A stretch of DNA of 64,000 bases from assembly GCA_963827655.1 (NCBI GenBank), contig CAWHCF010000004.1:1-64000 (forward strand), in the 5' to 3' direction. How positions within the stretch are numbered: position 1 is the first letter of the stretch; each line of letters starts with the position of its first letter. The position numbers and the translations under genes are program-made. Positions 410 to 9,999 of this stretch are shown here, piece by piece. The stretch comes from an uncultured Acidobacteriota bacterium. GTDB taxonomy: Bacteria; Acidobacteriota; UBA6911. The notes under the pieces are model-generated. The model made no database searches, had not been told where the DNA came from, and saw nothing but the letters and a program-made list of their open reading frames with translations.

Positions 410-2404
410 CTACCGACTCCTGGGTGGCGCGCCCCCGTTGAACCTCATCGAGGCGCCTGGTTCGAATAACGCGAAGACGTACAGGGTGCCCCCAGACCGG
501 TAGCTCTTCATCCACGGTGCCCCTGCCCCGGTATATCCTCCCACCGCCCCTCCCATGCCGGCGGGAATTGCGATGTACTGCTTGCCGTCTAACCGATAGG
601 TGATCGGCGCGGACCGGATACCGGATCCCGTTTGGTAGGACCAGAGAATCTGGCCATTTTCCGCGTCGTAGGCGGCGAAGTTGCCTTCGGCATCGCCGGT
701 GAAGATCAGCCCGCCGCCAGTGGCCAGCATGCCGCCACCCATGGGGGTGCGCGTTTTGACCTCCCAGACGACCTCGCCGGTATTCGGTTGGATGGCCATG
801 ACCTTGCCATAGGCTTCATTCGGCAGATAGCGAAAGCCGCTCGGCCCGGCGGGCAACTTCTGGCTCCGCGCTTTGACGCCGTAATTGTAGAACTTGGCGC
901 AGTTCTCGATTACCGGCAAGTACACCAGGCGTGTAATCGGGCTATAGGACATCGGCATCCATTCTTTGCCCCCCGCTGCCCCCGGACACACCGTGACGCC
1001 CTCGTACGTCGGGATGGCCGCAGGATCGATGATCGGCCTTCCGTTGGAGTCGAAACCCTTTGTCCACGTAACCCGCACGAACGGCTTGGCGTAAAGGAAC
1101 TTTCCGTTGGTCCGGTCCAGCGCGTAGAAATGACCGTTGCGGTCGGCATGAACCAATGCTTTCACGCGCCGCCCCTGCCACTCGATGTCGATGAGCACCA
1201 GCTCGTTGACGCCGTCCCAGTCCCAGACGTCATGCGGCGTATACTGATAGTGCCACTTGAGGCTGCCCGTGTCGGCGTCGAGCGCGACGACCGAATCCGA
1301 GTACAGGTTGTCCCCCTTGCGGGCATCGGTATCGTAATCGGGATAGGGATTGCCGGTGCCCCAGTAGATCAGATCCAGCTCCGGGTCGTACGATCCGCCC
1401 ATCCAGGTCGCCGCGCCCCCGGTCTCGTAGGATTTACCGCTCCAGGTCTCCGCCCCTTTCTCCCCCTCCCCGGGGATGGTATAGAAGCGCCAGAGCCGTT
1501 TTCCCGTCTCTGCGTGGTAGGCGTCGATGAAACCACGGCTAGGCGAATCTCCGCCGGCGATGCCGACGACGACCTTATCGCGGACAATAAGCGGAGGTTG
1601 CTTGGCGTTCTGGTTCTCCTCTACCTTGCCTATCTCGATGTCCCAGCGGACCCGTCCGGTCTGCGCATCAAGGGCCACGAGGTGGGCGTCCAGGGTAGTC
1701 ATGTACACTGTGCCGTTAGCGATCGACACGCCCCGATTCGCCGGCCCGCAGCAATAGTTCAGCTTCTGGGGAAGCCGCCGCTTATGACGCCACAACTCGG
1801 CGCCGGTCCGCGCGTCGATGGCGAACACGTGATTCCACGCTGCAGTCAGGTACATCACGCCGTCGACAAACAGAGGCGTCGCCTCCAGGCCATCCAGGAC
1901 CCCGGTCTGGAAGCTCCACACCGGCACCAGGTTCTTGACGTTGTCCTTGTTGACCTGGGCAAGCGAGCTGAAGCTATGGCTCGCGTAGTTGCCGCCCCAC
2001 ATGAGCCAGTTGTCCGGGTCCCGAACCGAATTCAGCAGGCGTTCCCCGCTCACGTTGAGCTTCGGTGCCTTTATGCTGGTAACCGGCTGCAGGGCCTGGT
2101 TTCCGAGCCACCGCAAGTGTTGCACGACCGCCTGCCGGGCGTCCTGATCGAGCCTGTCGGCGAACGCGGGCATGGCCGCGCCCCGGACACCCTCTCGTAT
2201 GATCCGGTCCAGCTCCGCGTCCGTTATGCTCGTCTGCCAGCCGGGATTCGCAAGATCCGGAGCGGATCCCCCGTCGCCGAGAGCCCCATGGCATACCGCG
2301 CAGTGCTCGGTGAACAACGTCTGGCCGCGTTCCTGCTGCGGCTGCGCCGCAGCCGCGGCCACGAACGCAAAGAAGGGGATGAGAGTTACCGTACGAAGAC
2401 CCAT
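410..2404 (-). CDS. PQQ-dependent dehydrogenase (methanol/ethanol family) with N-terminal cytochrome c domain
   Basis: Signal peptide MGLRTVTLIPFFAFVAAAAA; CAVCH heme motif; vicinal CCGPANRG; WMGGSYDPELDLIYWGTGNP; HDVWDWDGVNE; repeated PQQ propeller W-motifs. Start moved to ATG 2404. Confidence 0.9.
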   Translation of the reverse strand: MGLRTVTLIPFFAFVAAAAAQPQQERGQTLFTEHCAVCHGALGDGGSAPDLANPGWQTSITDAELDRIIREGVRGAAMPAFADRLDQDARQAVVQHLRWLGNQALQPVTSIKAPKLNVSGERLLNSVRDPDNWLMWGGNYASHSFSSLAQVNKDNVKNLVPVWSFQTGVLDGLEATPLFVDGVMYLTAAWNHVFAIDARTGAELWRHKRRLPQKLNYCCGPANRGVSIANGTVYMTTLDAHLVALDAQTGRVRWDIEIGKVEENQNAKQPPLIVRDKVVVGIAGGDSPSRGFIDAYHAETGKRLWRFYTIPGEGEKGAETWSGKSYETGGAATWMGGSYDPELDLIYWGTGNPYPDYDTDARKGDNLYSDSVVALDADTGSLKWHYQYTPHDVWDWDGVNELVLIDIEWQGRRVKALVHADRNGHFYALDRTNGKFLYAKPFVRVTWTKGFDSNGRPIIDPAAIPTYEGVTVCPGAAGGKEWMPMSYSPITRLVYLPVIENCAKFYNYGVKARSQKLPAGPSGFRYLPNEAYGKVMAIQPNTGEVVWEVKTRTPMGGGMLATGGGLIFTGDAEGNFAAYDAENGQILWSYQTGSGIRSAPITYRLDGKQYIAIPAGMGGAVGGYTGAGAPWMKSYRSGGTLYVFALFEPGASMRFNGGAPPRSR

Positions 2405-2950
2405 AGGCGCGCCGTGAATGTCACCGCCGAGATTGATCCTTGACGATACTGAAGAAGCCTTTCCGGGGCAAGAACTCTCGGCGAAAACGACGTGACCTCG
2501 CCCGTCTGTGACTGGTTTCAAAACGTCTTTTGACACGCTGGACTTTCGAGTGGCCGCCCTTCCGGGAAAGAACGCTGTCGTGGACAGTCAATCTCAGACC
2601 TCCATTTGTACCAGGACATATGAAACAGCTCGTGCTCGCAAATCAGAGCCTTTGGTCCCGGGACGTGTCGTATTGGTAAGTGATGGCCTGGATGAGTCCG
2701 ATGAAACTCTCCTTGGAGCCGGGTCTGAGCGACAGTGATCGGACAAGGCGAGCGCCAGAGCGGAGCCAGCGTTATTCGGGCTTTTACGGTCGTGACCCGG
2801 TTGGTGATGAGCTGGCGCCGGGAAGATCGCGGTTGAGCAATCGGCCTGGTAAGAGAGAGAAACCGACCTGTCCTGACCGCCTCACGTTGAGACATTGTTC
2901 CAGCGCGGCTTTTGATCACATGATCAACGGTCTAGCCGGTCCGGGATGCT

Positions 2951-3817
2951 CTAGTCTCCGACCTCCAGGACATAGATTTGCCATGCGATAGGAGGGGTGG
3001 TAACCATCGATTCTACTTTGTTTTGTACCACATCCAGGATCTCTCTCACCTCCTCATCAGGCACACCGGCAAATAAGCTACTTCCCTTCGCCATAACAGG
3101 TATGCGTAAGAAATCGATGTGATCCTTGGGGGTACAATGAACCGCTATGCGCTCTCTTCTAGTTAACTTCAGATTGTAATCGTCTAAAGACTCTAATACG
3201 AAATTCGTTTTCGGCACGAGATCAGATTGTGAATCGCGGGCGCTACGGTCGTACCATTCTGGGCTTGCGTAGCCTCTCAGAGCTTTCTCCTTTAATATCG
3301 TCCCGAACACCGTGTTTTCCTCATAAAGCGCGCGTATCTCGCTGAATCTGAACCGAGGGTGCAGTCCCATGAGGCATTTTCCTGAGCGTTTGAGACTTCG
3401 ATGAATCCTCGATAAAACTTGTGCCTTGTCGAACATCCAGAACGCCGCATTGCACAAGATCCGATCCACTTTCGTCTTTGCAACCTTGCTCAGGTTCTCA
3501 GCTTTCTCGCAATGGAATTCTACGTTTGCCGAGGTTATGCGTCTCTGGGCGCAGGCGAGCATTTGAGGTGAAAAGTCAATCGCTATGATTTTGATAGCTT
3601 TCCCATAGGGTTGCCTGAGAATAGCTTCAGTGACCGATCCAGTTCCACAAGCCAGATCGACCACAACCATGCCTGGTTCGATTCCAGCCAGCTGCAGCAT
3701 CTTTTCTGCTGTGTATCGGTAGAAAGTATTTCGAGAAGCAAAGGCGGCGTATGCCTCGGCGCTCAGGTCCCAGTCTTGCTGCTCGCTTAAATTACGACCG
3801 ATGGGTCGTTTACTCAT
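2951..3817 (-). CDS. Class I SAM-dependent methyltransferase (putative RiPP tailoring enzyme)
   Basis: Motif I VVDLACGTG, IAIDFSPQML, DRILCNAAFW; last gene of the MNIO operon, same AT-rich composition. Confidence 0.85.
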   Translation of the reverse strand: MSKRPIGRNLSEQQDWDLSAEAYAAFASRNTFYRYTAEKMLQLAGIEPGMVVVDLACGTGSVTEAILRQPYGKAIKIIAIDFSPQMLACAQRRITSANVEFHCEKAENLSKVAKTKVDRILCNAAFWMFDKAQVLSRIHRSLKRSGKCLMGLHPRFRFSEIRALYEENTVFGTILKEKALRGYASPEWYDRSARDSQSDLVPKTNFVLESLDDYNLKLTRRERIAVHCTPKDHIDFLRIPVMAKGSSLFAGVPDEEVREILDVVQNKVESMVTTPPIAWQIYVLEVGD

Positions 3818-3984
3818 CTTGATTTCCGTCCCTTAGGAAATGATCGTCCTACTGTGCCAGAGTAGGACGATCATTTACCATTATGTTCAAGGTCTCGAGA
3901 GCTGCCTCTGCAACGTGGATGAAGTCTTAGATGCCGATGCAGCTTGTACCCGAACTTTGCAAGATTGTTCTGGAACTGCTAGCT

Positions 3985-4149
3985 TCAGGCGCAGCCGCAG
4001 CCGCAGCCGCAAGCACAGGCAGAGCCGCAAGAACAAACTTTGCCACAAGAGCAAACGCAGCTGCATAATGGAACCGACAAGGATGCTTGGGCAGCTTTAG
4101 GCTCAAACGGCTCCAATTTGAACAAATCCGTTTGCTTGCTATCAGGCAT
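3985..4149 (-). CDS. Cys-rich RiPP precursor peptide, 54 aa (MPDSKQTDLFKLEPFEPKAAQASLSVPLCSCVCSCGKVCSCGSACACGCGCGCA)
   Basis: Strong SD GAAAGGAGGTGA just upstream of ATG 4149; Cys-free leader followed by an 11-Cys CxC-repeat core; lies between the MNIO partner and the methyltransferase. Confidence 0.85.
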   Translation of the reverse strand: MPDSKQTDLFKLEPFEPKAAQASLSVPLCSCVCSCGKVCSCGSACACGCGCGCA

Positions 4150-4289
4150 AAGTATCACCTCCTTTCTTTCCGGTAGGCCAGAACCACAAACAATCGCCTT
4201 TTCATGAGAACACAACGGATCACACTCAGAGGTCATTTCTGACTAACCACGCTCATAATAATCTGATCACTAATAATCAGTTGGTCTAG

Positions 4290-5183
4290 CTACGCCTGTT
4301 CCTCGTTTTCGCCGATAAAGTTTACTGCTCCCCGGACATACAGTTGCTCGAGCGTCGCCAGGCAGTCAGCCCTTGCCGCGGCTTCGGTGATCCCCAGTTG
4401 AGAAGCTATAGATGAGATAACACCATCGAGGGTATGCTTTCCATCGCAGAGCTCAATCAGGTGTTTTAAAGGCAGATTGATAATGCTGGTATGAACGCCT
4501 GGCGCATGCGGTATCTTGAAGAAGAGAACCCAGGTTGGTTTCACCTCTAATGGTGGAATAGCTTGTTGCTCTTCAACCAGGGGGATTAACTCAGCCATGT
4601 TGTAACTGAATGATTGCAGACGCGCATGCTTACCTAACAAAGGTGTGGAGCTTCTTTGACACTCGTTGGTAAATGTCGATTTCGTCCGGTCTGCCTTCGT
4701 GAACCCTATGGCGTACTGACTTACCTCCGGATCAGTCAGCATCGAGAACTTGAGCACCTCGAATTCCAGGACATCCGTAAAACAGGGCACGTCTATTTCT
4801 TTTGTGGCGATCAGCTGACGAAGGTATTCAGAGACTCTGTGAAATTCGCCACGCACCCAGTCGCCCCCAATCTCATCGGTGCCCCTGACATTTTCTAAAC
4901 CATACCGATTGAGGACGACATGGAACTTCTCAGCCGGAAGCTGTTTGGCCAGAACGAGAAATGAGAGGGGCAGCCACTTCTTTATGAGCGCCAGTCTCTT
5001 ACTCAGCAATGAGCTGGCATATTCGCGAACTGCTTGCAGATCGACCGATTTGATGTCTTCTGACTCCTTTGCTGTCAAAGCAGACAATTCGAGAGCCTTG
5101 TCTGGGTCGCTGGAGAAAGTGTGACGGAATTCATGATCGACGCATAGCTTGGCGATTACAGTTTGCATGGCAATCATTGACAT
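4290..5183 (-). CDS. MNIO partner protein (HvfC/BufC/TglI-like) with C-terminal PqqD/RRE-like winged helix
   Basis: Directly downstream of DUF692; AGGAGG SD before ATG 5183; N-terminal KLCVDHEFRHTFSSDPDKAL helix; FTDVLEFE; C-terminal LIELCDGKHTLDGVI...LEQLYVRGAV. Confidence 0.75.
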   Translation of the reverse strand: MSMIAMQTVIAKLCVDHEFRHTFSSDPDKALELSALTAKESEDIKSVDLQAVREYASSLLSKRLALIKKWLPLSFLVLAKQLPAEKFHVVLNRYGLENVRGTDEIGGDWVRGEFHRVSEYLRQLIATKEIDVPCFTDVLEFEVLKFSMLTDPEVSQYAIGFTKADRTKSTFTNECQRSSTPLLGKHARLQSFSYNMAELIPLVEEQQAIPPLEVKPTWVLFFKIPHAPGVHTSIINLPLKHLIELCDGKHTLDGVISSIASQLGITEAAARADCLATLEQLYVRGAVNFIGENEEQA

Positions 5184-5271
5184 GGACCATTCCTCCTGAA
5201 AACGACGACGATCGCTGGCCACAGCAAAGCAAAACTATTCCTCAGACGTACAGCAGGCGACGAACGGCCAT

Positions 5272-6108
5272 TTACCCGCGGCCGTGATACCGTCTGAATA
5301 TCTCTCGCGCCGTGGCCAGGTCGCCAATCAGCTCTTGAAAGGAGCTGGGGAAATTGTCGTCTCTTTCTAACAAAACCCCCTTGACTGGGGCATGGCTGAC
5401 GACAAACTCCAGCAGGCGGAAAACCTCTGGATGAACTGGATGGCTGTGAGAATCAATCCACTTCGTGTGATGCCGATGCCCGCCAGCGATGTGTAACTGC
5501 ACGACGCGATCCAGCGGGATTGACTTTAAAAAGTGATATGGGTCATATCCGTGGTTGATAGAATTAATGTATACATTGCAGAGATCGAGCAGCATCCCGA
5601 TGTCCGCTTGCTCCAGGACGCGAGTAATGAAGGCCGGCTCTGACAGTTCACTTCCGGGAAATTGAAAGTAGTAGGTGATGTTCTCCAGCAGGAAAGGCCT
5701 CGGGACTTTCTCTTGTATCCGCTTTATCTTGCGGACTACGATCTCTACGGTTTCCTCCGAAAACTGCAGCGGTGTTAGCTGTCCCAGGTTGTACCCCTCA
5801 ACCCTGGTGAAACATAGGTGGTCTGTAAACCACGGGGCGTCCAGTCTTTTAACCAGGGCAGAAAGGCTTTCCAGATACGCGGCCTCAATAGGTCTATCTG
5901 TTCCTATGGAAAGGTCTATACCATGAGGCACGATCGGAAAAGTCGTCGCGAGAGTCGACAGTTGATCTAACTTGTCGGGGGTTACGTTAATATAATGTTC
6001 GGCGATGACTTCGCACCAATCAATATGCTCCCGATTGAGCATGATCTCTTTGGCAATCTCCCGTCGCCAGCCAATGCCGACGCCGAGTGTTGGTATGTCT
6101 GAATACAT
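5272..6108 (-). CDS. DUF692 family multinuclear non-heme iron oxidative enzyme (MNIO; MbnB/TglH/ChrH-like)
   Basis: GVGIGWR, EVIAEHY, HGIDLSIG, WFTDHLCF, LLENI, LLDLCNVYINS, QLHIAGG, IDSHS and LLERD motifs; GGAGG SD. Confidence 0.95.
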   Translation of the reverse strand: MYSDIPTLGVGIGWRREIAKEIMLNREHIDWCEVIAEHYINVTPDKLDQLSTLATTFPIVPHGIDLSIGTDRPIEAAYLESLSALVKRLDAPWFTDHLCFTRVEGYNLGQLTPLQFSEETVEIVVRKIKRIQEKVPRPFLLENITYYFQFPGSELSEPAFITRVLEQADIGMLLDLCNVYINSINHGYDPYHFLKSIPLDRVVQLHIAGGHRHHTKWIDSHSHPVHPEVFRLLEFVVSHAPVKGVLLERDDNFPSSFQELIGDLATAREIFRRYHGRG

Positions 6109-6158
6109 AAGACCCCTCCGGGTGCGAGGCTAAGACATCGTAACTGTGGGAGTTACTT

Positions 6159-8246
6159 TCATACTGGGTCGCGCCTCGTCAGTGTAATGATGCGTTTCGA
6201 GGTAAGGTCCCGAACGAGTTCTGTGATCCGCTCTGTTAGTTCGCTTTCGCTTGGTTCTATGGCGTGGTGGTTGTGGTAAAAGTGCGCTAGCTTTCGGCTG
6301 ATCACCCGGACCGTGTGGGTTCCATCGCAAAGATCAAGGAAATACTTCGTCGCCTGGTTGATTGTGAACTCCAAGTTGATAAAATTCCGTTCTCGCTTGA
6401 ACAAGAGGAAGGTAGGGGTCTGTGGAAGGTCACGTGGTATGTCATGTTGCTGCAAGCGAGTAGCTAAGGTCTGTAAGTCGTAGTTAAATGTCTGGACATG
6501 AACCCCTTTGGATTTGAGAGGTCTAAGGTCCGATAGATCAGCGATAGTATTGTGCTTGCTGATACGCGGTGCCGCGGCAGCGACGGACGCTACGGATCCA
6601 GGCGCCCAGGCGGGCGGGCTAACAAGTTCGGCGTCGCGATCGAGTAGCATCAAGTTATGGGCTTTCTCATACCTGAACGCGTCAATGAAATACTCGTATC
6701 CGCTGCCAAGGTCGCCCAGCATGGGCTCCAGAAACTCGCAAAGCCCCAAAGCGTCTTTGAACTGGCCAGCTGCCGGGGCAGTGCGCTGTCGGCAGTATTC
6801 ATTTACTAGCTGATCCCATTGGCCGTTTAACAAAGCGCTGGTCCATGGCAAGCGCGCTTTCAGCTTCTCTTTTCTGACAGACTCTAGAGGAGCCCCGCCA
6901 TCGGTTGTAGTCGATAGTCGTGTCTGCCGCTTGTCGATCATCTTGATCCACTCCTTCTCGAGGGCATCAAGATATGTTGCGGTTGCCTTGTCGCGGGCGG
7001 CATGGGCATCTTCATCGCCGCTGTATAATTCATGCCCCTGGAGTCCGATGAGCTTTGCTTTGTCTGGGTCGCGAATTACGACGGTTAATTGTCTGGCCAG
7101 GTCCAGGTGTTGTTTAGGATCGTCCACGATAAGCACATTCTGCCCATCGATGAACCTGTCTTTAATTCTGTGCTGCTTATTTGAGATTTCTCTGGAAACG
7201 ATCAGGGGGGTGCCGCAAGCTAAAATCTCACTGGGAATTGTGGGGCTATGAAAACTGATTGGGAACTCTCGCTCGAGGAAACAGACGGCAGTGCACGCAC
7301 GAATGAACCCAGGAACTTTCCAGTGCGGCATAAAGGGAAAGATCCACGTTCTATCCTGTAAATCGAGTTCCTCAATAGCTCGTTTGAAGCTTGTGAGAGC
7401 TCTTCCCTGAGTCAAGGCTAGAAGGTTGAAATCTAATCCTCTTTGCTTTAATAGCCTTAAAGCGTTCAGGAGGTCGAAGGACCCTTTCACTTCACCTACC
7501 TTCCCATAAATACCAATCGAAGGTTTGGACAAATCGATGGGATTTGTGTTGATTAGAGCGGTTTGCACGTGCTTGCTTTGCAAGGTTGCTAACCTTTTTA
7601 GAAATCCATTAAGATCTAAGGGCTTTGCCTGAGGACTAAAAATGTCTGGAACCTGGGGGGTTCTACCTGGCCATATATTCTCTTCTTTTACGCCCATAGC
7701 CAGGAAGGGCTCGGTAAAGGCAGATCCCGTCCATACGGAATCAGCGGCTCTCAGTATCTCGCGATAGGCGGTTGTGAGATCACGCTGCTTCATTAAGCGA
7801 CCTAAATCGCTGCCCGCATGCTTTAGCATGTAGGGGACTCCAGTCCATTGCGAGGCCAGATAGGCGGCCATGCCGTAGGGTTGAAGGTAATAGGCAAAAA
7901 TCACTTCGCAACCGTGTCGCCGGATCACCTCGGTCGCTATGGAAGACAGCTTGGTCACAAAGGGATTGGATAAGGGAATGTGCGTCATGGCGTCGGTAAA
8001 CGGCTGTGTGTTACGGACCCTGACGAAGCCCCCGGAATCCGCGAACTGTGGCTCATACCAATCCTGGTCGTCCTCATCCATGTAAATTCGGTATTCCGGT
8101 TCAACCTCGACGGCATTAGTCACTATAAAAATCTGATGACCTCGTTGCGCCAACTCGCGTGCCAGCCAGTAAGAACGCATGCTCACTCCACCTTCGATAG
8201 GTGGATACTTAACAATGAAACACGCTCTGATCATAAGTCTCTCCAT
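6159..8246 (-). CDS. GT4-type (GT-B) glycosyltransferase fused to a C-terminal MNIO-partner/RRE-like domain
   Basis: N-terminal YPPIEGGVS...ELAQRGHQI, HAGSD, GKVGEVKG, EILACGTPLIVS; last ~240 aa resemble the partner gene 4290-5183; alternative start at ATG 8234 with a GGAG SD. Confidence 0.85.
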   Translation of the reverse strand: MERLMIRACFIVKYPPIEGGVSMRSYWLARELAQRGHQIFIVTNAVEVEPEYRIYMDEDDQDWYEPQFADSGGFVRVRNTQPFTDAMTHIPLSNPFVTKLSSIATEVIRRHGCEVIFAYYLQPYGMAAYLASQWTGVPYMLKHAGSDLGRLMKQRDLTTAYREILRAADSVWTGSAFTEPFLAMGVKEENIWPGRTPQVPDIFSPQAKPLDLNGFLKRLATLQSKHVQTALINTNPIDLSKPSIGIYGKVGEVKGSFDLLNALRLLKQRGLDFNLLALTQGRALTSFKRAIEELDLQDRTWIFPFMPHWKVPGFIRACTAVCFLEREFPISFHSPTIPSEILACGTPLIVSREISNKQHRIKDRFIDGQNVLIVDDPKQHLDLARQLTVVIRDPDKAKLIGLQGHELYSGDEDAHAARDKATATYLDALEKEWIKMIDKRQTRLSTTTDGGAPLESVRKEKLKARLPWTSALLNGQWDQLVNEYCRQRTAPAAGQFKDALGLCEFLEPMLGDLGSGYEYFIDAFRYEKAHNLMLLDRDAELVSPPAWAPGSVASVAAAAPRISKHNTIADLSDLRPLKSKGVHVQTFNYDLQTLATRLQQHDIPRDLPQTPTFLLFKRERNFINLEFTINQATKYFLDLCDGTHTVRVISRKLAHFYHNHHAIEPSESELTERITELVRDLTSKRIITLTRRDPV

Positions 8247-9465
8247 TCATCGTTGTGAGGCGGCAAGCCGGCCTGCGCAGCCTCACATTTTAATGCGATG
8301 ATCAGCAAGCTCATGTGCCAAGGTAGCTGACGGAGCCTGAATATTACTGCCGGTCAAAAAGCTTCCCAGGAGCGAGAATCAAGCTTCAGGCCAGGCGATT
8401 ACCACACCCGGCGGCCCGCTTATCTATTGAGTGTCTTCGAATTGGGTGAATTAAAGGGAAACGGGACAAAAGGAATGAAGAGCTGCAAGCATCATCCCCA
8501 GAACCACGAAAGAAACCGTGCGGTGTGATGAAACGACGCAGAGAGTGAGCAATCATAAGTTCCCCCACTTTGATTGGCAAATCCTCCATCCATCCGTTTC
8601 TGCTGGTGGGTGGCTGCGGTTTCTACGTATGTTTAGTTAAAGTCAGAGGAAAAACGTTTCACTCTCTGGAACATTTATTAATCTGGCAATGATTCTCAGG
8701 CGTCAGCGAAACAGGAATCAACCGGTGGCTACAGGGCGAGATGACGGCGTGGCGGTCCGCGGCGCCCCCCACGCAGTGCCAGTGGAAACCGCATCCGCTT
8801 CCGCCCCGATCTGATTCAGTTTTTGCGCAGGCTGTCGAATGGAAGCGACATGCAGGTGCAACGCTGGCGTAGACGCGCTCAAGTGACAGCAGCAGCGACC
8901 ACGTAGCTTTCCGAGCAGGAGGAGTGAGCTTGGCTCCGGCACTGACCGTCGCAGGTTCGTTCGAACTTGTATGGACGGTCGCCGCCGGCGAGACGGTCTG
9001 TCGCGGGCTTCCCGCACTAGGGATGATCGGCTTTTCGGGTGATCGTCGAATCGGTCTCGATGAGTTGTGTCGGCCAGGCAACGGCCACGGGTCCGTCACC
9101 GCAAAGAAGCCCAACCGGAATCCAAGAATCCATCAAGCGCGCCTGCCGGATAGCTTGGCTATCCAATAGGATAGGAGTAGGGTCTCGACACTAATCCGCC
9201 CAAGAGCAAAATCTATCGGCGAAACGGCGTTGACATAGGGGATAAATTGACCGTGCAAAGCTTCAGATGGCGGATCGAGTCACGCGCCCACCCGAATCAG
9301 ACTTATCTGGTTCTGAACGATCGCGCCTCTTATCGGCGCGTGAAATGAAGTGGGCAGCCAGGCGGCGCTTGCCGAAAGTGACGGCGAGCAACGCCCTGGA
9401 ATTCAGTTCGGTCGGCCTGCGGGCATCCATCGTTGATAGATCAATGAAACCATCGGCGGCGCGTC

Positions 9466-9999
9466 TTACTTCTTCCGGTTTTTCTCGATGTACGCGCGTG
9501 CGAATGCGACGAGGTGAGGCGCCTCTCGAAGACCGATTTTCTTCGCTTCCTCTTCGGCAGCTTCGAAGGTCCAGCCGTCACGAAGGACCCGTCGTATCAT
9601 CCAGAAGGCTCCCACGCGGATTGCCGCCGTGCAATGAATAAGCATCGGCCGGTTCGCAGGATCCTCGGTGATCTGCAGAAAGAGGTCGACCTGCTCGTCT
9701 TTCGGTTCACGATAGACAACGGGGATGTTGAAGTACTTCAACCCGAGTTCCTTTGCCTTCGCCTCTTCGTCCGCGGCCCGGTGTTCCGCAGGCGTGCGAA
9801 GATTGAGGATCGACTTCAACCCCTCCCCCTTCAGCTTCTCCAGGGCTTCCAGCTTCGGCTGCCCGCCGGTGCAGAATTGATCGTTGACCAGAGTGAAGTT
9901 TAAGATTGCCGGCTGCTCCTTTTGAACCTGAGCAAAGAGCGTAATGGATGGAGCCGCAAGAACTCCTGCGGCACACAGCACAGGAATGAGCCTTTTCAT
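9466..9999 (-). CDS. Secreted protein-tyrosine-phosphatase-like / DUF442 sulfur-transferase family protein
   Basis: Signal peptide; GGQP, ILNLR, LIHCTAAIRVG (CX5R loop); AGGAGG SD before ATG 9999. Confidence 0.8.
   Translation of the reverse strand: MKRLIPVLCAAGVLAAPSITLFAQVQKEQPAILNFTLVNDQFCTGGQPKLEALEKLKGEGLKSILNLRTPAEHRAADEEAKAKELGLKYFNIPVVYREPKDEQVDLFLQITEDPANRPMLIHCTAAIRVGAFWMIRRVLRDGWTFEAAEEEAKKIGLREAPHLVAFARAYIEKNRKK

Follow-up and report, generated by a model that had tools for sequence, protein, structure and literature searches.

A candidate RiPP operon combining a GT4 glycosyltransferase fusion and an MNIO enzyme in an uncultured Acidobacteriota bacterium

Multinuclear non-haem iron oxidative enzymes (MNIOs) are yielding unusual peptide chemistry, as well as molecules for metal handling in bacteria, at a rapidly growing rate, and most of their gene clusters are unassigned. 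Among the described systems, bufferins (BufA/BufB/BufC) and oxazolins (HvfA/HvfB/HvfC) are produced by an MNIO and a partner protein carrying a recognition element (RRE) for peptides that are ribosomally synthesised and modified post-translationally (RiPPs); Cys residues are targeted and the products bind metals (PMC12452194, PMC11626156). In methanobactins (MbnA/MbnB/MbnC), an MNIO and its partner modify a precursor that becomes a metal chelator (PMC12452194). The pes (nitrilobacillin) cluster pairs its MNIO with an asparagine-synthetase-like enzyme, and this MNIO is described as hydroxylating Asp and lacking the third-iron motif (PMC13060819). Sugars on ribosomal peptides are known from the glycocins (SunS/ThuS/ThgS-type), which are glycosylated on Cys and/or Ser/Thr (PMC12457901). 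Here, we analyzed a 64,000-nucleotide stretch of DNA (hereafter the window; positions 1 to 64,000 of contig CAWHCF010000004.1) from an uncultured Acidobacteriota bacterium of the UBA6911 lineage, in which a first-pass annotation had pointed to five genes at positions 2951-8246 as a possible RiPP cluster containing a glycosyltransferase (GT) and an MNIO.

On the basis of gene content, fold assignments, synteny, a conserved leader and predicted leader binding, we consider it likely that the locus is a functional RiPP operon. It would belong to a widespread and apparently uncharacterised family defined by a GT4-partner/RRE fusion, an MNIO and a Cys-rich precursor with a leader, usually joined by a separate TglI-like partner.

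Gene content of the locus

Five co-oriented open reading frames (ORFs), all intact, lie head to tail on the minus strand of positions 2951-8246 in the ORF list of the window. The first-pass annotation had read them as GT, MNIO, partner, 54-aa Cys-rich peptide and methyltransferase, with Shine-Dalgarno (SD) sites before MNIO, partner and peptide, and both the gene set and the SD sites (by direct reading of the sequence) were confirmed. Its domain calls (GT4, MNIO, partner with RRE, methyltransferase) also proved correct in Pfam and NCBIfam profile scans and, for the partner, in a fold match to TglI; PF05114 and the GT4 families both matched above the Pfam cut-offs. The features are as follows.

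6159..8246, minus strand: GT4 glycosyltransferase fusion, 695 aa (Pfam PF13579 and PF00534, structural model, Foldseek)
5272..6108, minus strand: MNIO, 278 aa (PF05114)
4290..5183, minus strand: MNIO partner, PME-type-2-like, 297 aa (SD site, homologues, TglI fold)
3985..4149, minus strand: precursor peptide, 54 aa, MPDSKQTDLFKLEPFEPKAAQASLSVPLCSCVCSCGKVCSCGSACACGCGCGCA (SD site, conserved leader, adjacency)
3838..3876, minus strand: hairpin with a perfect 16-bp stem and a 7-nt loop, between the precursor stop and the methyltransferase start
2951..3817, minus strand: class I S-adenosylmethionine (SAM) methyltransferase, 288 aa, accessory tailoring (Methyltransf_25)

The GT membership in the GT4 family (GT-B fold) is clear, as each of the two Rossmann-like halves exceeds the cut-off of a GT4 profile: Glyco_trans_4_4 (PF13579) at residues 19-189 with 49.6 bits (cut-off 29.7) and Glycos_transf_1 (PF00534) at residues 232-398 with 46.1 bits (cut-off 26.4). 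The true start is probably ATG 8234 (MIRAC...), which matches the family consensus. The protein is laid out as a GT4 domain (residues ~1-410), a helical linker and a C-terminal MNIO-partner/RRE-like module (~452-694), and the AlphaFold model (predicted local distance difference test, pLDDT, 85; predicted template modelling score, pTM, 0.83) shows a GT-B domain, a helical region and a C-terminal sheet-plus-helices domain. The top 40 Foldseek matches were all GT4 and GT-B enzymes, and the closest solved folds of the GT domain were BshA (3mbo, 6d9t) and MshA (3c48), with E-values of 1e-17 to 8e-17. Nine residues of the GT4 donor motifs (G245, Y247, G248, K249, G251, K254, G255, E325 and E340) do not vary among 15 sequences of ~40% identity; they form the G-x-Y-G-K...K-G pattern plus the two Glu of the E-x-n-E motif, align to the motifs of 5i45 and, as we assume from the GT4 literature, bind the sugar donor.

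Residues 558-688 of the GT gave a weak HvfC-like match in NCBIfam, and a profile-profile comparison with hhalign aligned residues 452-694 with residues 57-292 of the partner as homologues (probability 99.9, E 1e-32); judged by this alignment, the GT C-terminus is a second copy (paralogue) of the MNIO-partner/RRE module. When GT residues 410-695 and the precursor were modelled as a complex, the ipSAE values (an interaction score derived from aligned errors) were 0.00 for the best control and 0.75, 0.75 and 0.72 for the complex, a mark that 58 of 80 solved complexes and 2 of 110 mismatched pairs attained. The runs shared at least 60% of contacts, with a partner pLDDT of at least 46, and the confident contacts joined precursor leader residues 9-18 to GT strand 625-630 and helices 632-636 and 669-681. 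In these predicted models the RRE appears as a three-strand sheet plus three helices, and the GT RRE is predicted to bind the precursor leader as an added strand, the canonical RRE mode. It should be noted that a single-sequence search with GT residues 430-695 retrieved 57 representatives, a count that is not a measure of family size because the module is too divergent for this kind of search.

The precursor has a hydrophilic 28-aa leader, with the motif at residues 9-18, and a 26-aa core containing 11 Cys in CxC and CxxxC spacing, and AAAGGAGG stands ahead of its ATG as an SD site. By inspection, no signal peptide is apparent, the first 28 residues being hydrophilic and lacking a hydrophobic stretch. 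Neither Pfam nor NCBIfam contained a matching family. In the protein collection it matched itself and one 67%-identical peptide, which says nothing about rarity because small ORFs are rarely called there.

The MNIO matched PF05114 over nearly the whole profile (295.2 bits versus a cut-off of 25, E 5e-88, profile positions 1-261 of 263), which places it in the MNIO superfamily; GGAGG lies 8 nt ahead of its ATG. Scores against curated subfamily models were 237.3 bits for the BufB equivalog NF050167 (cut-off 310), 222.6 bits for HvfB NF003818 (cut-off 360) and 56.2 bits for MbnB TIGR04159 (cut-off 325), and the ChrH score of 64.6 bits was far below those of BufB and HvfB. The best BufB E-value among 31 family members was 1.2e-77. 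By these profiles, the enzyme is closest to BufB/HvfB and below both curated cut-offs. Matches among PDB chains were the DUF692 structure 3bww (E 9e-42, 146.7 bits) and TglH (8hci_D; E 2e-24, 89.6 bits). Eight positions (H62, H97, E142, D175, H206, D219, H221 and E248) are invariant in 31 sequences and fall in motifs identical to those of 3bww and TglH, and we take them to be the iron ligands of the TIM barrel. Judging from these eight invariant His/Asp/Glu positions, the MNIO looks active.

Although the partner ORF also opens at GTG 5222 (4290-5222), ATG 5183 is most likely its start because AGGAGG sits ahead of that codon and 17 homologues start at the aligned position. In this protein, the N-terminal part is helical and NHLP/Os1348-like and is followed by a helical domain and, at the C-terminus, an RRE; the model has a pLDDT of 87.7. 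The best fold match, over the whole length, was TglI (8hi7_A; E 1.3e-5, template modelling score (TM) 0.58/0.63, 292 columns), so that a TglI-like protein with a helical domain and an RRE stands next to the MNIO, as in other members of the superfamily. Foldseek also returned PqqD (5sxy) and TbiB1 (5v1v) with weak E-values, NF038399 matched with E 1.9e-8, and no DUF2063 Pfam match was found in the partner. The partner fits PME-type 2, a group described for MNIO substrates without a signal peptide and exemplified by a Plesiocystis partner in an MNIO landscape paper whose text, in its accessible part, does not deal with glycosyltransferases (PMC12452194). In addition, partner residues ~1-56 (5012-5183) resemble an NHLP/Os1348-like leader-like protein part (Foldseek 6lk7_C, TM to target 0.71), and the GT-fused copy of the module lacks this N-terminal part. 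An ESM Atlas look-up of the partner returned unnamed clusters, with DUF2063/NGO1945 clusters at lower scores, which we treat as leads only.

Conservation, distribution and genomic setting

The GT search scored 8000 candidates, 460 of which had E-values of at most 1e-3. Among the matches listed, at least 120 were full-length relatives of the GT fusion (all with E <= 2e-124, most of 640-720 aa), with Corallococcus, Hyalangium, Stigmatella, Sorangium, Plesiocystis, Acidobacteriota and Anaerolineae as named sources, and some were annotated as 'PqqD family peptide modification chaperone'. We drew 43 GT loci from contigs of one genome per species; 35 of them have an MNIO no more than 7 kb away from the GT, in a variable gene order with the GT first or last. 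The loci span Acidobacteriota, Myxococcota, Actinomycetota, Chloroflexota, Planctomycetota, Gammaproteobacteria and Rhodothermales. The window locus is a compact five-gene example of a family present in at least seven phyla. As for the eight loci lacking an MNIO, four encode short GT-only proteins (L043, L044, L046 and L048), two are GT fragments (L049 inside a 123-kb contig, L050 on a 4.6-kb contig) and two end at contig ends (L028 and L039). Pairwise GT and MNIO distances are correlated (r = 0.68, with 0 of 2000 permutations as high, 28 sequences), which fits inheritance of the two genes as one unit, related genomes not being independent samples.

Of the 35 GT+MNIO loci, 26 were seen to contain a partner that was either separate or fused to the MNIO; in the other nine, the query used revealed no partner-like sequence beyond the fused module of the GT. 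Apparent MNIO-partner fusions of 595 and 688 aa were seen in Corallococcus exercitus (L017:5543-7330) and in a Kofleriaceae metagenome-assembled genome (MAG; L030:4912-6978), respectively. Loci of Ktedonobacteria, whose odd candidate precursors carry T-C-K-type repeats, have no separate partner gene.

The synteny of GT, MNIO and Cys-rich peptide that the first-pass annotation proposed to look for recurs both in relatives and across phyla. Alignable Cys-rich precursors were found in 18 of the 35 loci and other Cys-rich small ORFs in four more (L033, L034, L035 and L047), using a filter (at least 5 Cys in the last 40 residues of an ORF of at most 160 aa) that may miss real precursors. The outcome named in the first-pass annotation as refuting its reading, homologous GT/MNIO pairs without any adjacent Cys-rich peptide, was thus not observed. 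The leader motif F-x-[LFV]-[ED]-x-[LV]-[DE], which aligns with LFKLEPFE of the window peptide, is conserved in a 28-row alignment (the window plus 27 precursors from the 18 loci) and also in two metagenome contigs, L052 and L054. In these close relatives the leader is kept and the core has diverged with its CxC pattern kept. Across 30 precursors every core has at least 4 Cys (4-14, typically 5-6, expanded to 8-14 in the window lineage); Ser/Thr positions are not conserved, and two cores have neither residue. A conserved leader and a hypervariable core with a conserved Cys pattern, lying beside modifying enzymes, are what a RiPP precursor should have, and the window peptide behaves like one. 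Some candidate precursors are odd (L034:3320-3577, L035:6582-6812 and L047:3185-3481), and one such peptide, from a Bryobacteraceae MAG, has eight consecutive Cys. A Thermoanaerobaculia MAG (L020:752-10153) combines two GT fusions, one MNIO and one partner with at least nine tandem precursor genes, which encode double-Gly-type leaders and cores with four CxxC.

The gene order of the window is retained in metagenome contigs L052, L054 and L055, with GT identities of 75-91%. The closest named locus, L009 from a Pyrinomonadaceae MAG, has an ABC exporter between partner and precursor, which is absent from the window, L052 and L054. To survey neighbouring families, 211 ORFs were reduced to 112 on the same strand with valid coordinates, of which 110 were scanned after two long ORFs had been dropped; the 99 ORFs left out were on the minus strand or ran off a contig end. 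The commonest families were Asn-synthase-like amidotransferases (17), ABC exporters (10), methyltransferases (6) and extra GTs (4). Downstream of the GT in Plesiocystis pacifica (L016:7867-11763), an Asn-synthase-like amidotransferase (residues 406-924) is fused to a C-terminal methyltransferase (1046-1173), which hints that the two activities may act on the same group; this ORF call overlaps the GT, and its true start is probably later.

The methyltransferase of the window matched Methyltransf_25 with E 1.4e-17 (_11 and _31 likewise at 1e-16 to 1e-17), and NCBIfam gave generic matches below cut-off (BioC 65 bits versus 185). Orthologues occupy the same position in L052 and L009, and in the family as a whole it is an accessory gene. 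The hairpin upstream of it belongs to a strongly folded RNA segment (-54.2 kcal/mol, z -3.15 for positions 3825-3990), and its stem is unchanged in L052, where the flanks differ. It has no U-tract and was not called by the terminator scan; it is probably a transcript-stabilising or attenuating element.

The cluster stands in a region of distinct composition. The GC content is 0.49-0.53 over positions 2500-8500, versus 0.60-0.63 leftwards and 0.60-0.67 at 10.5-12 kb; the first position of the window is also that of its contig, in a genome of 8.18 Mb in 53 contigs. Among 40 relatives of the host, a set that includes the unpublished genome G034, a full-length GT-fusion match was found in none, weak matches to the GT domain only in four (E 3.6e-5 to 4.3e-4) and an MNIO in three, one being G034. 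The GC drop, the absence of the GT fusion and the rarity of the MNIO among these relatives point to sporadic acquisition of the cluster in the host lineage. Near-identical DNA occurs in sequencing runs labelled 'soil' and 'rhizosphere', and all four RNA libraries (three studies) yielded contigs that cover the precursor ORF together with scattered stretches of the enzyme genes, which indicates presence only, not transcript structure or level, and is weak evidence for the precursor ORF. An Rfam scan of positions 2500-9600 found no riboswitch, its single match being sub-threshold and at chance level, and promoter and terminator predictions were not above shuffled sequences (5 versus 5.3 and 10 versus 6.8). 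Two further sites on the minus strand were likewise not above shuffles: a -35/-10-like site at 8552-8580, ~300 nt upstream of the GT start, with 10 of 12 consensus matches, and a short GC-rich inverted repeat at 8255-8290, directly upstream of that start. In the high-GC flank, outside the low-GC island, a 708-aa ORF (410-2536, minus strand) looks by eye like a pyrroloquinoline quinone (PQQ)-dependent dehydrogenase with an N-terminal cytochrome c motif, C-x-x-C-H.

A second MNIO gene is present in this genome (G000:C20:336868-337680; locus L002:1480-2349, minus strand). After it come an ORF of 170 aa whose N-terminus is NHLP-like, an RRE-like ORF of 117 aa and one resembling a methyltransferase, an arrangement that has the look of a distinct MNIO cluster in which the partner is split. 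In the NCBIfam scan of the MNIO set including this gene, the best ApyH E-value was 3.4e-106, probably from that member.

Proposed pathway and alternative explanations

We propose that the 54-aa precursor would be made in the cytoplasm, having no signal peptide, and that the RRE of the partner would bind leader residues 9-18 as an added strand and offer the core to the MNIO. Several of the 11 Cys may then be oxidised by the MNIO with O2. Among the possible products, 5-thiooxazole is the most likely because BufB and HvfB are the nearest characterised relatives, with oxazolone-thioamide as an alternative. The GT would bind the same leader motif through its own RRE, and its GT4 domain would use an NDP-sugar to glycosylate the core; the BshA/MshA-like fold of the GT makes UDP-GlcNAc a sensible initial guess for the donor. 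A sulfur derived from Cys is the most likely acceptor, as no other nucleophile is conserved in every core of the family. The methyltransferase would add at least one methyl group, to a thiolate or a carboxylate, and the hairpin probably raises precursor mRNA relative to the downstream methyltransferase. The product might serve as a thiophilic-metal binder or an antimicrobial.

A more specific form of this pathway can be put forward tentatively, and we would not expect it to hold in all its parts. The family could represent a new RiPP class in which a leader-guided retaining GT4 enzyme S-glycosylates Cys thiolates made by the MNIO, for example thiooxazole sulfurs. The window product would then be poly-heterocyclic, alpha-S-glycosylated and methylated, and at loci without a separate partner the fused module might dock on the MNIO to form one two-enzyme machine.

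Several observations weigh against the assignment of the locus as a RiPP operon of this family. The chemical steps are drawn from sequence and models. The chemistry of BufB and HvfB is not simply transferable because the MNIO lies below both equivalog cut-offs, and the PqqD profile of RREs scored below its gathering cut-off of 23.4 bits on both the partner (21.5) and the GT (13.9). Familiarity of the prediction model with known folds may account for part of the complex score, since leader-RRE complexes have already been solved, and the runs used our own small alignments. The precursor filter came back empty in 13 of the 35 GT+MNIO loci, and a methyltransferase occurs in only seven. No protease or exporter is present in the five-gene cluster, and the host genome has no close orthologue of the L009 exporter, the best matches being generic ABC proteins at 34-36% identity. 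Metal-uptake or copper genes were not among the 25 commonest neighbour families (110 same-strand ORFs), which gives no support for a secreted metallophore. In addition, the RNA evidence consists of contigs in RNA libraries.

The alternative that survives best, which we regard as possible and still rather unlikely, is a RiPP cluster with other Cys chemistry, such as methanobactin-like oxazolone-thioamide formation, TglH-like beta-carbon excision or ChrH-like cross-linking or macrocyclisation, and with the sugar on Ser/Thr. The sub-cut-off BufB and HvfB scores would agree with it, as would a partner whose best fold match is TglI and not a DUF2063 protein; moreover, highly similar MNIOs have been assigned different products, and the HvfB product has been reassigned (bioRxiv 2026.06.05.730506, 2025.12.15.693703, 2026.07.17.739211). 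However, the BufB (237 bits) and HvfB scores are far above those of ChrH and MbnB, 3bww outscores TglH among PDB chains, and the cluster contains no PEARL-type ligase. As regards O-glycosylation, 28 of the 30 cores do contain Ser or Thr, but its positions shift from core to core and two cores offer none.

A second alternative, which we consider improbable, is that the GT leaves the peptide unglycosylated: its fused module would mainly be an extra or alternative MNIO partner or scaffold, and the acceptor of the GT4 domain would lie elsewhere, for instance in the cell envelope or among small molecules, unless the domain is catalytically idle. The nine loci with no separate partner detected are compatible with this, because there the GT module may be the only partner of the MNIO; BshA and MshA, which are nearest among solved folds, act on small molecules, and no acceptor site can be named. 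However, the invariance of the donor-binding motifs argues for a working enzyme. In RiPP pathways, a transferase fused to a leader-binding module usually signals modification of the peptide, and here the predicted leader binding sits on the RRE of the GT itself, and almost all complete loci have the fusion together with both an MNIO and a precursor.

Finally, it is very improbable that the Cys-rich ORF is no precursor at all (a chance ORF or a plain metallothionein-like peptide beside unrelated enzymes or a decayed set), as its lack of a Pfam or NCBIfam family and its two database matches stand against a strong SD site, a leader kept in close relatives with variable cores and shared across phyla, constant adjacency to the enzymes, enzyme ORFs that are all intact with their catalytic residues kept, and near-identical pieces in RNA libraries of three studies.

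Comparison with known systems

The window locus would work in the manner of the bufferin, oxazolin and pearlin systems without belonging to any of them. Bufferins and oxazolins have the MNIOs nearest to that of the window by sequence. The window precursor differs from theirs in lacking a Sec signal peptide and the EGKCG motif, and the window adds the GT4 fusion and the methyltransferase. Membership in either group was rejected on the MNIO scores (below cut-offs of 310 and 360), the missing Sec signal peptide and the missing DUF2063 (PME-type 1) partner.

The pearlin system TglHI is alike in the fold of the partner (TglI) and in a precursor without a signal peptide, and TglH is the second-best PDB match of the MNIO. 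It differs in that the window has no PEARL/TglB-type ligase, its substrate is not a single C-terminal Cys and its MNIO is much closer to BufB and HvfB; with no PEARL ligase in the cluster, a pearlin assignment was rejected. Methanobactins share a short precursor without a signal peptide and Cys beside small residues. They were rejected as well, as MbnB reached 56 bits versus 325 and no MbnC family match was obtained; a TonB receptor or other methanobactin genes were found neither in the window cluster nor among the 25 commonest neighbour families. Nitrilobacillin (pes) recalls related GT-MNIO loci through the Asn-synthase-like genes that make up 17 of their 110 neighbour ORFs, whereas the window cluster has no Asn-synthetase-like gene.

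On the side of glycosylation, the enzymes of glycocin biosynthesis belong to the GT2 family, whereas the window has a GT4 enzyme of BshA/MshA-like fold that carries a fused RRE module and is paired with an MNIO. This enzyme has no GT2 (PF00535) match, and the locus is therefore not a glycocin cluster. BshA and MshA are GT4 retaining UDP-GlcNAc transferases of bacillithiol and mycothiol synthesis; the GT domain resembles them more closely than any other solved fold (TM to target up to 0.74), and they differ from it in their 15-17% identity, their small-molecule substrates and the lack of a peptide-binding module. In the accessible part of an RRE survey, RRE fusions are reported to PF00535 (GT2) glycosyltransferases and not to PF00534/PF13579 (PMC12710340).

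The first-pass annotation had not recognised this enzyme combination from any characterised pathway, and none was found in full-text searches of one literature library. In that library, which lacks many subscription-journal papers, no paper linked an MNIO to a glycosyltransferase; Fig. 5b and Fig. S3 of PMC12452194 may list GT or Asn-synthase genes for small MNIO clusters. The first-pass annotation had overlooked the fused module of the GT, the wide occurrence of the pairing, the accessory status of the methyltransferase and the lack of a protease or exporter. What is new here is the MNIO-partner/RRE module fused to a GT, its predicted leader binding and the widespread pairing of GT and MNIO. 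If confirmed, the locus would bring a new glycosyltransferase family into RiPP biosynthesis and offer a portable leader motif useful in engineering, possibly together with a new chemistry of sulfur-linked sugars; it would also open a testable way to a metal-binding or antimicrobial peptide, densely rich in sulfur, from uncultured soil bacteria. The five genes are small enough for direct heterologous reconstitution. Should S-glycosylation also prove true, the window enzyme would be the first GT4 RiPP glycosyltransferase and its peptide the first glycosylated MNIO product.

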